64,000 nt of DNA, from NCBI RefSeq assembly GCF_057098645.1, contig NZ_CM169472.1; one strand, written 5' to 3'. The notes beneath the pieces are model-generated. The model was not told the DNA's origin, searched no databases, and was given only the letters and a program-made list of their open reading frames with translations. Shown piece by piece: positions 12,324 to 13,288 of this stretch. Within the stretch, counting starts at the first letter, position 1. Each line of letters begins with the position of its first letter. A program made the position numbers and the translations under genes.

Positions 12324-12764
12324 ATGAAAAAACTAACCTTTGAAATTCGATCTCCAGCACATCAGCAAAACGCTATTCACGCAGTACAGCAAATCCTTCC
12401 AGACCCAACCAAACCAATCGTAGTAACCATTCAGGAACGCAACCGCAGCTTAGACCAAAACAGGAAGCTATGGGCCTGCTTAGGTGACGTCTCTCGTCAG
12501 GTTGAATGGCATGGTCGCTGGCTGGATGCAGAAAGCTGGAAGTGTGTGTTTACCGCAGCATTAAAGCAGCAGGATGTTGTTCCTAACCTTGCCGGGAATG
12601 GCTTTGTGGTAATAGGCCAGCCAACCAGCAGGATGCGTGTAAGCGAATTTGCGGAGCTATTAGAGCTTATACAGGCATTCGGTACAGAGCGTGGCGTTAA
12701 GTGGTCAGACGAAGCGCGACTGGCTCTCGAATGGAAAGCGCGATGGGGAGATCGGGCTGCATGA
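12324..12764 (+). CDS. ninB: NinB (Orf recombination protein), 146 aa
   Basis: Track ORF 12306-12764 trimmed to MKKLTFEIRSPAHQQNAIHAVQQILPDPTKPIVVTIQERNRSLDQNRKLWACLGDV..., matching lambda NinB. Confidence 0.9.
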   Translation: MKKLTFEIRSPAHQQNAIHAVQQILPDPTKPIVVTIQERNRSLDQNRKLWACLGDVSRQVEWHGRWLDAESWKCVFTAALKQQDVVPNLAGNGFVVIGQPTSRMRVSEFAELLELIQAFGTERGVKWSDEARLALEWKARWGDRAA

Positions 12765-13288
12765 CTATCAAATCAAATACGCCAGCACACGACAAGGACT
12801 GCTGGCAAACGCCGCTTTGGCTTTTTGATGCACTGGATATTGAGTTTGGATTCTGGCTGGATTCGGCAGCGAGCGACAAAAACGCTCTGTGCGCTCACTG
12901 GCTAACTGAGGCTGACGACGCGCTAAATTCTGAGTGGATAAGCCACGGTGCAATCTGGAATAACCCACCGTACAGCAATATCAGGCCGTGGGTGGAAAAA
13001 GCCGCTGAGCAGTGCATACAACAGCGACAGACGGTAGTGATGCTTGTGCCAGAGGATATGTCTGTCGGATGGTTCAGCAAGGCTCTGGAGAGTGTTGACG
13101 AAGTTCGTATTATCACTGATGGACGGATTAATTTTATCGAACCATCGACAGGGCTGGAGAAGAAGGGAAACAGCAAAGGCTCCATGCTGCTGATTTGGCG
13201 ACCGTTCATTAGTCCTCGACGGATGTTTACTATCGTATCCAAAGCGGCATTGATGGCGATCGGGCAGGGCGTCAGGAGGGCGGCATGA
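12761..13288 (+). CDS. Putative phage DNA N6-adenine methyltransferase (orphan, Dam-like), ~175 aa
   Basis: Track ORF 12701-13288 trimmed to [38 protein letters not shown]...NPPYS; the NPPY motif and DxxxxWxTP N-terminus are typical of phage adenine methyltransferases; sits where lambda has ninC/ninD. Confidence 0.75.

Follow-up and report, generated by a model that had tools for sequence, protein, structure and literature searches.

An intact phage-type dam methyltransferase gene in the nin region of a defective 434-type lambdoid prophage

The window analysed here, a stretch of 64,000 nucleotides from contig NZ_CM169472.1 of the RefSeq assembly GCF_057098645.1, includes a lambdoid prophage in whose nin region an intact open reading frame (12761-13288, + strand; 175 amino acids plus stop) encodes a dam-type phage N6-adenine DNA methyltransferase. 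The dam gene is preceded by ninB (orf; 12324-12764, + strand; PF05772, E=1e-53), and the dam ATG (12761-12763) and the ninB TGA (12762-12764) share an ATGA overlap (12761-12764, + strand). A second overlap of the same kind (13285-13288, + strand) joins the dam TGA (13286-13288) to the ATG (13285-13287) of the next gene, ninE, the product of which is NinE (PF05322, E=1.3e-42). Such ATGA junctions are typical of nin regions (bioRxiv 10.1101/2020.10.05.325894), and they couple dam translationally to both ninB and ninE. A Shine-Dalgarno-like GGGGAG (12745-12750, + strand) lies inside the ninB coding end, 10 nt 5' of the dam ATG, and the annotation of phage 434 has a ribosome_binding_site at the corresponding place. 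A longer ORF of 195 amino acids beginning with a GTG at 12701 was dropped in favour of the ATG at 12761, because the latter is the start used in phage 434, VT2-Sakai and PGAP/RefSeq and because M1 is invariant in an alignment of 75 homologues. The placement is that of a lambdoid nin-region gene, 3' of tR2 and with the ATGA coupling present; nutR is deleted in this prophage.

Pfam profile matches identify the genes flanking dam as those for NinB, NinE, NinF, NinG/Rap and a Ser/Thr phosphatase. No restriction endonuclease gene is found among these neighbours, and the methyltransferase is thus an orphan, as originally predicted; the annotations of phage 434, VT2-Sakai and an O103:H2 genome show the same arrangement without an endonuclease. 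In lambda, the slot between ninB and ninE is occupied by NinC plus NinD (lambda sequence L006, 1082-2124), which agrees with the earlier statement that the methyltransferase stands in place of lambda ninC/ninD. As a point of mosaic exchange, the ninB-ninE slot holds NinC, annotated as a member of the PAPS-reductase family, and NinD in lambda, and the methyltransferase in 434, HK97, SfI and Stx phages; an extra NinX/DUF2591 gene is found in the same stretch in some relatives (Sf101, HK544 and IME10). The dam coding sequence contains one GATC site (13258-13261), and another GATC (12750-12753) is located between the Shine-Dalgarno-like element and the start codon. The observed/expected ratio of GATC is 0.26 in the dam gene and 0.45 across O to lpxR, counts that are too small for interpretation. 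Over the window as a whole it is 0.69, with early prophage segments at 0.45-0.61 and two right-hand blocks, consisting of late prophage genes and host chromosome, at 0.78-0.79. GATC depletion was accordingly discarded as a signal, these values not being distinctive enough for interpretation.

The dam protein matches the Pfam profile PF05869, 'DNA N-6-adenine-methyltransferase (Dam)', over positions 1-167 of 169 with E=1.5e-64 and 217.2 bits (cut-off 28.1 bits), and the NCBIfam equivalog TIGR01712, 'phage N-6-adenine-methyltransferase', over positions 1-165 of 165 with 262.8 bits (cut-off 97.05 bits). As profile scores, these are far beyond chance. It also matches PHROG 111, 'DNA methyltransferase', and its best matches in PADLOC are orphan-MTase models. 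The original prediction of a methyltransferase of about 175 amino acids with an NPPY motif, overlapping the ninB stop, is confirmed by the ORF, the ATGA and the PF05869/TIGR01712 matches. The gene is already known: it is an ordinary, characterised and routinely annotated gene of lambda-like phages. The stretch of 1.4 kb from ninB to ninG shows 100% nucleotide identity with phage 434, where the gene is annotated as CPT_434_59, 'DNA adenine methyltransferase', and 1565 of 5426 complete E. coli genomes (about 29%) carry the dam gene, which PGAP names 'phage N-6-adenine-methyltransferase'. Matches at the DNA level are present in 422 phage records, tblastn with the dam protein extends the number to 2132 phage records, and the family comprises 8716 representative clusters at E<=1e-3. 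A search of the literature on the phage 434 genome or on nin-region methyltransferases found nothing specific.

In the alignment of 75 diverse homologues at 32-79% identity, six columns are invariant (M1, T17, D34, N68, P70 and R122) and ten others are conserved in at least 90% of the sequences (P18, F31, A37, W59, P69, Y71, L95, W104, F125 and N137). The dam protein retains all 16 of these residues, so that the catalytic motifs, the loss of which on careful alignment would have told against the original prediction, are all in place. The catalytic motif IV of amino-methyltransferases, NPPY (residues 68-71; 12962-12973, + strand), is found in 71 of the 75 homologues, with NPPF in three others, and follows the strand formed by residues 64-67 in a structure model obtained with AlphaFold2 (pLDDT 95.4, pTM 0.91). 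WQTP (residues 15-18; 12803-12814, + strand), with T17 invariant and P18 at 97%, precedes the helix of residues 19-29 and, from this place in the model, may occupy the position of the gamma-type motif X. FWLDSAAS (residues 31-38; 12851-12874, + strand), with D34 invariant, F31 at 91% and A37 at 95%, includes the model strand 31-34, and by analogy with M.TaqI-type enzymes it is presumably the motif I-like strand and loop that bind AdoMet. A fourth conserved segment, GRINF...GNSKGS (residues 121-141; 13121-13183, + strand), with R122 invariant, F125 at 99% and N137 at 91%, is mostly a loop between the model strands 114-119 and 141-146.

The model has a Rossmann-like fold with NPPY after the fourth strand and an N-terminal cofactor strand, in agreement with a class I AdoMet-dependent amino-methyltransferase. 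Its order runs from the N-terminal helix after WxTP through the first strand, ending in D34, to the NPPY strand, and as modelled this motif order is that of M.TaqI-type (gamma) enzymes. No separate target-recognition domain is present in the model, which consists of the catalytic core and one C-terminal helix only, and GATC would therefore have to be read by loops of the core. Residues 121-141, including R122, F125 and N137, might be the GATC-reading loop, as guessed from their conservation and from the model of a monomer. A PDB sequence search, with the single protein and with a profile of the 75 sequences, gave only chance matches, SdiA, and Med31 via 'WCNPPYS'.

The closest characterised relative is M.EcoVT2Dam (VT2-Sakai orf32, NP_050531.1), which is identical at 173 of 175 residues and shares the 528-bp gene length, the position between ninB and ninE and the ATGA coupling. 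The protein here differs from it by two conservative substitutions, I60V and I158T, and the gene here differs in its setting, a prophage in which the early-right control region is replaced by an IS. Copies of identical length occur in phage 434, HK97, SfI, Phi24B and Stx phages. M.EcoVT2Dam is reported to be GATC-specific in a passage of PMC6602927 that cites Radlinska and Bujnicki (2001). T1 Dam (M.EcoT1Dam, T1 ST20), which is 33% identical to the dam protein, has in common with it PF05869 (E 1.7e-70), the WxTP, D-x-A-A, NPPY and R-x-x-F motifs and reported GATC methylation, but T1 Dam is extended by 48 residues at its N-terminus and carries an insertion ahead of the GR-x-x-F segment, and its gene is located beside a helicase gene in a virulent phage. 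The lactococcal enzyme M.Phi93DAM is likewise a PF05869 member with 33% identity and the same four motifs, but it is shorter (140 amino acids) and its gene lies between the terminase genes of Lactococcus phage Phi93. Its GATC methylation has been observed by SMRT sequencing and by DpnI/DpnII digests, the DNA being protected from DpnII (PMC4190342). The prophage enzyme M.Btr190III, 35% identical to T1 Dam, also methylates GATC and has off-target activity. The GATC target thus appears to be retained across deep divergence. From the 99% identity to M.EcoVT2Dam and from the members with 33% identity, we infer that the dam protein here is a GATC N6-adenine methyltransferase; the activity of this exact allele would follow from its near-identity to the VT2-Sakai enzyme.

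The dam protein is 'Dam-like' in its reported target, and its kinship to the host Dam is limited to the general fold. The alpha-class enzymes of PF02086 (MethyltransfD12), E. coli Dam, T4 Dam and DpnM, have in common with it the reported GATC target, the N6-adenine D/NPPY chemistry and the class I fold, but the dam protein gives no match to the MethyltransfD12 profile with the DPPY plus FxGxG combination in the alpha order that characterises PF02086. The structure model is closest to M.TaqI-type (gamma-class) enzymes and to PCIF1/CAPAM, at an identity of only 12-16%. M.TaqI, M.BseCI and HsdM-type enzymes are 380-750 residues long and have large target-recognition domains or partner subunits, whereas the dam protein has 175 residues and neither of these; PCIF1 methylates RNA caps. 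Hia5, Hin1523 and Nma1821 of Mu-like prophages are likewise orphan prophage N6-adenine methyltransferases thought to protect phage DNA. Kinship to them was ruled out, as they are EcoDam/T4Dam-like (HHsearch) with DPPY plus FxGxG, have the catalytic Asp at 191-194 and show essentially no sequence specificity.

The prophage is of the 434 type, with the 434 repressor and pR, and on its left side ybhC is followed by a lambda-type integrase gene; the genes to its right may be bio genes, a reading from ORF sizes only. The normal promoter of the dam operon, pR of the 434-type immunity region (9490-9518, + strand; TTGACA-17-GAAAAT), is preserved, its -35 and -10 elements having annotated counterparts at the corresponding positions of phage 434. 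Downstream of it, an IS3-family insertion sequence of 1310 bp (9576-10885, - strand), delimited by its sequence junctions and containing transposase ORFs at 9618-10508 and 10505-10831, replaces 1133 bp of phage 434 sequence (434 comparison sequence L002, 3436-4568; blastn). The IS is 97.8% identical to IS3-family copies in another comparison sequence (L005). On its left remain cro codons 1-10 (9547-9575) and on its right the 3' part of O (10886-11265); since these flanks are not contiguous in 434, the event was no simple insertion but a deletion associated with the IS. The sequences lost are cro from codon 11, boxA/nutR, cII, oop, four ori iterons and the first half of O, a region from cro to O that is intact in a related O103:H2 prophage.

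With the origin and half of O lost, the prophage cannot replicate, and with nutR lost, rightward transcripts would receive no antitermination and the dependence on N is inoperative. A tR2-type intrinsic terminator (12276-12309, + strand), composed of an 8-bp stem with 6 GC pairs (12276-12299) and a T tract, is retained just upstream of ninB-dam, and phage 434 has an annotated terminator at the same place. The loss of nutR together with an intact tR2 makes it probable that the dam copy is silent even after repressor inactivation. This silence by the normal route is probable by extension from lambda biology, and some transcription might still come from a weak internal promoter or by read-through out of the IS. 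The prophage is therefore defective, with neither replication nor rightward antitermination, and dam is probably a passenger in it, an ORF with no frameshift or stop codon and no sign of decay.

Taken together, the locus is very probably best explained as encoding a functional small phage Dam of PF05869/TIGR01712, an orthologue of M.EcoVT2Dam that may serve to top up GATC methylation, the copy here being likely silent. The enzyme would flip out the adenine of GATC and methylate its N6 in the NPPY active site, AdoMet being held by the first strand, which contains D34, and the loop after it. The protein is nothing more than a catalytic core, some 160 residues long and in the gamma motif order, and GATC would be read by core loops, possibly those of residues 121-141. 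In an intact lambdoid phage, dam would be a delayed-early gene, reached by transcripts from pR only after polymerase modified by N at nutR has passed tR1 and tR2, and its translation would be coupled to that of ninB through the ATGA. Consistent with expression from such phages, the product of the identical-length dam of Phi24B has been detected in lysogen cultures, with expression changing on induction (PMC3342100).

The virion DNA of lambda and P22 is under-methylated at GATC, replication outrunning the host Dam. The phage Dam might top up GATC methylation on fast-replicating phage DNA left under-methylated by the host enzyme, and the progeny DNA would then withstand enzymes of the DpnII/MboI type, which cut GATC that lacks methylation, and host systems that read GATC, MutH among them, would not take it for unmethylated. 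For this topping-up role we put the chances slightly above even. An anti-restriction role has been demonstrated in the family only for the distant lactococcal member of Phi93, by analogy with which it might be extended to the enzyme here, and since DNA methylated at GATC would become sensitive to DpnI-type enzymes, the benefit depends on the host. A link to the Dam-triggered retron-Sen2 was set aside, as the Dam enzymes in that work were those of the host, Salmonella and P1 and not of the PF05869 family, and is a lead only.

Some other readings bear on the specificity and on the role of the enzyme. It might be an adenine methyltransferase of relaxed specificity that merely prefers GATC and methylates related sites at the levels reached in infection, thereby giving broad protection against restriction, as the lack of a separate target-recognition domain in the model, the off-target activity of M.Btr190III and the description of prophage and plasmid methyltransferases as 'often promiscuous' (PMC4659465) would suggest. 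However, the 99% identical M.EcoVT2Dam is given simply as GATC-specific in the passage on it in PMC6602927, SMRT sequencing of phage Phi93 detected only G6mATC for its PF05869 enzyme (PMC4190342), and the known non-specific enzymes Hia5 and Hin1523 are relatives of EcoDam/T4Dam (DPPY, FxGxG) and belong to another family; this reading is improbable. A mainly regulatory or housekeeping role, in the stability of lysogeny, in the timing of promoters or packaging, or in shielding replication and recombination intermediates from MutH-directed repair, is somewhat less unlikely and would still be the less expected outcome. The host Dam is reported, as cited in PMC3342100, to be needed for lysogeny by the Stx2 phage 933W to be stable (Murphy et al., 2008), P1 packaging reportedly depends on GATC methylation (PMC4190342), dam here has recombination genes to either side (ninB/orf and ninG/rap), and the authors who detected the Phi24B dam product in lysogen cultures suggest that it supplements the host Dam (PMC3342100). 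That detection may reflect spontaneous induction, however, and it is only in lambdoid mosaics that the family adjoins ninB, its members being found elsewhere in the terminase region (Phi93) or beside a helicase gene (T1). Moreover, the prophage 'Dam homolog' M.EcoMIV of EC958, a possible PF05869 member and weak context only, was judged transcriptionally inactive by RT-PCR (PMC4659465). A more speculative proposal, which we regard as a long shot, is that the phage Dam, rather than serving mainly against restriction, works with NinB/Orf and NinG/Rap, rapid GATC methylation of new phage DNA blocking MutH nicking and so allowing diverged lambdoid phages to recombine and become mosaic, or that a core of relaxed specificity protects beyond GATC.

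The chance is about even that the copy here is a remnant in decay, with an ORF that still looks intact but lies in a dead prophage and serves neither phage nor host. Through the IS the prophage has lost most of cro, together with nutR, cII, the origin and half of O, and has neither replication nor rightward antitermination, and tR2 is intact upstream; against decay of the gene itself, the ORF is free of frameshift and stop and has 100% DNA identity to the gene of the viable phage 434. This reading concerns only the present copy and not the identity of the gene, and it leaves the assignment as an orthologue of M.EcoVT2Dam as it was. For that GATC enzyme the predicted target is the host Dam site, so that no new methylation motif is expected in a dam+ cell, and such an absence, which the original prediction took as a refutation, cannot refute activity. 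Similarly, a comparison of the methylomes of induced and uninduced cells, proposed as a check, is likely to be uninformative in this strain, as the copy probably has no normal route of expression.

As a discovery the gene carries little weight, being annotated by pipelines, carried by about 29% of the complete E. coli genomes and represented by a near-identical enzyme with a reported target. A modest interest remains in how a core of 175 residues reads GATC and in why a phage with a dam+ host should keep a GATC methyltransferase of its own; neither point is specific to this locus. For methylome work on this strain, the dam copy would add no new motif and is probably without its normal transcription route.

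Several other genes of the prophage were compared with those of phage 434. Directly downstream of N, overlapping the N stop by coupling of the ATGA type, is a gene for 293 amino acids (6855-7736, - strand), which corresponds to PHROG 12139 (unknown function; E 1.6e-205) and is annotated in phage 434 as a 'Nun C-terminal peptide-containing protein'; its 20 C-terminal residues match the PHROG of a Nun-like transcription-termination factor with E 6.9e-5. Compared with the PADLOC models, it gave no match. These similarities suggest a possible exclusion or termination function. Of the original interpretation, the orphan methyltransferase reading is upheld, but the anti-restriction theme that dam was thought to share with this N-coupled gene is unsupported, the gene being one of unknown function with a Nun-like end and no PADLOC match. 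N itself extends over 7733-8188 in the ORF list and is 324 nt long as annotated in 434.

Downstream of the 434-type repressor gene, an ORF (8409-8885, - strand) overlaps the end of cI (8810-9442). Its equivalent in phage 434 is the 'repressor protection protein' Hex, for which the annotation notes that the start codon has been wrongly inferred in the past; with 158 amino acids in the ORF list, the ORF here is longer than the 434 annotation (405 nt). On the opposite strand to the nin genes, between the nin phosphatase gene and the Q region, lies a gene for an outer-membrane protein of the lipid A deacylase LpxR family (15112-16071, - strand; PF09982, E 6.8e-40). In phage 434 the LpxR-family gene comes after a short N-terminal fragment of a lambda-type Q, and it resembles a moron, an extra gene dispensable for phage growth, that was inserted where Q was replaced.
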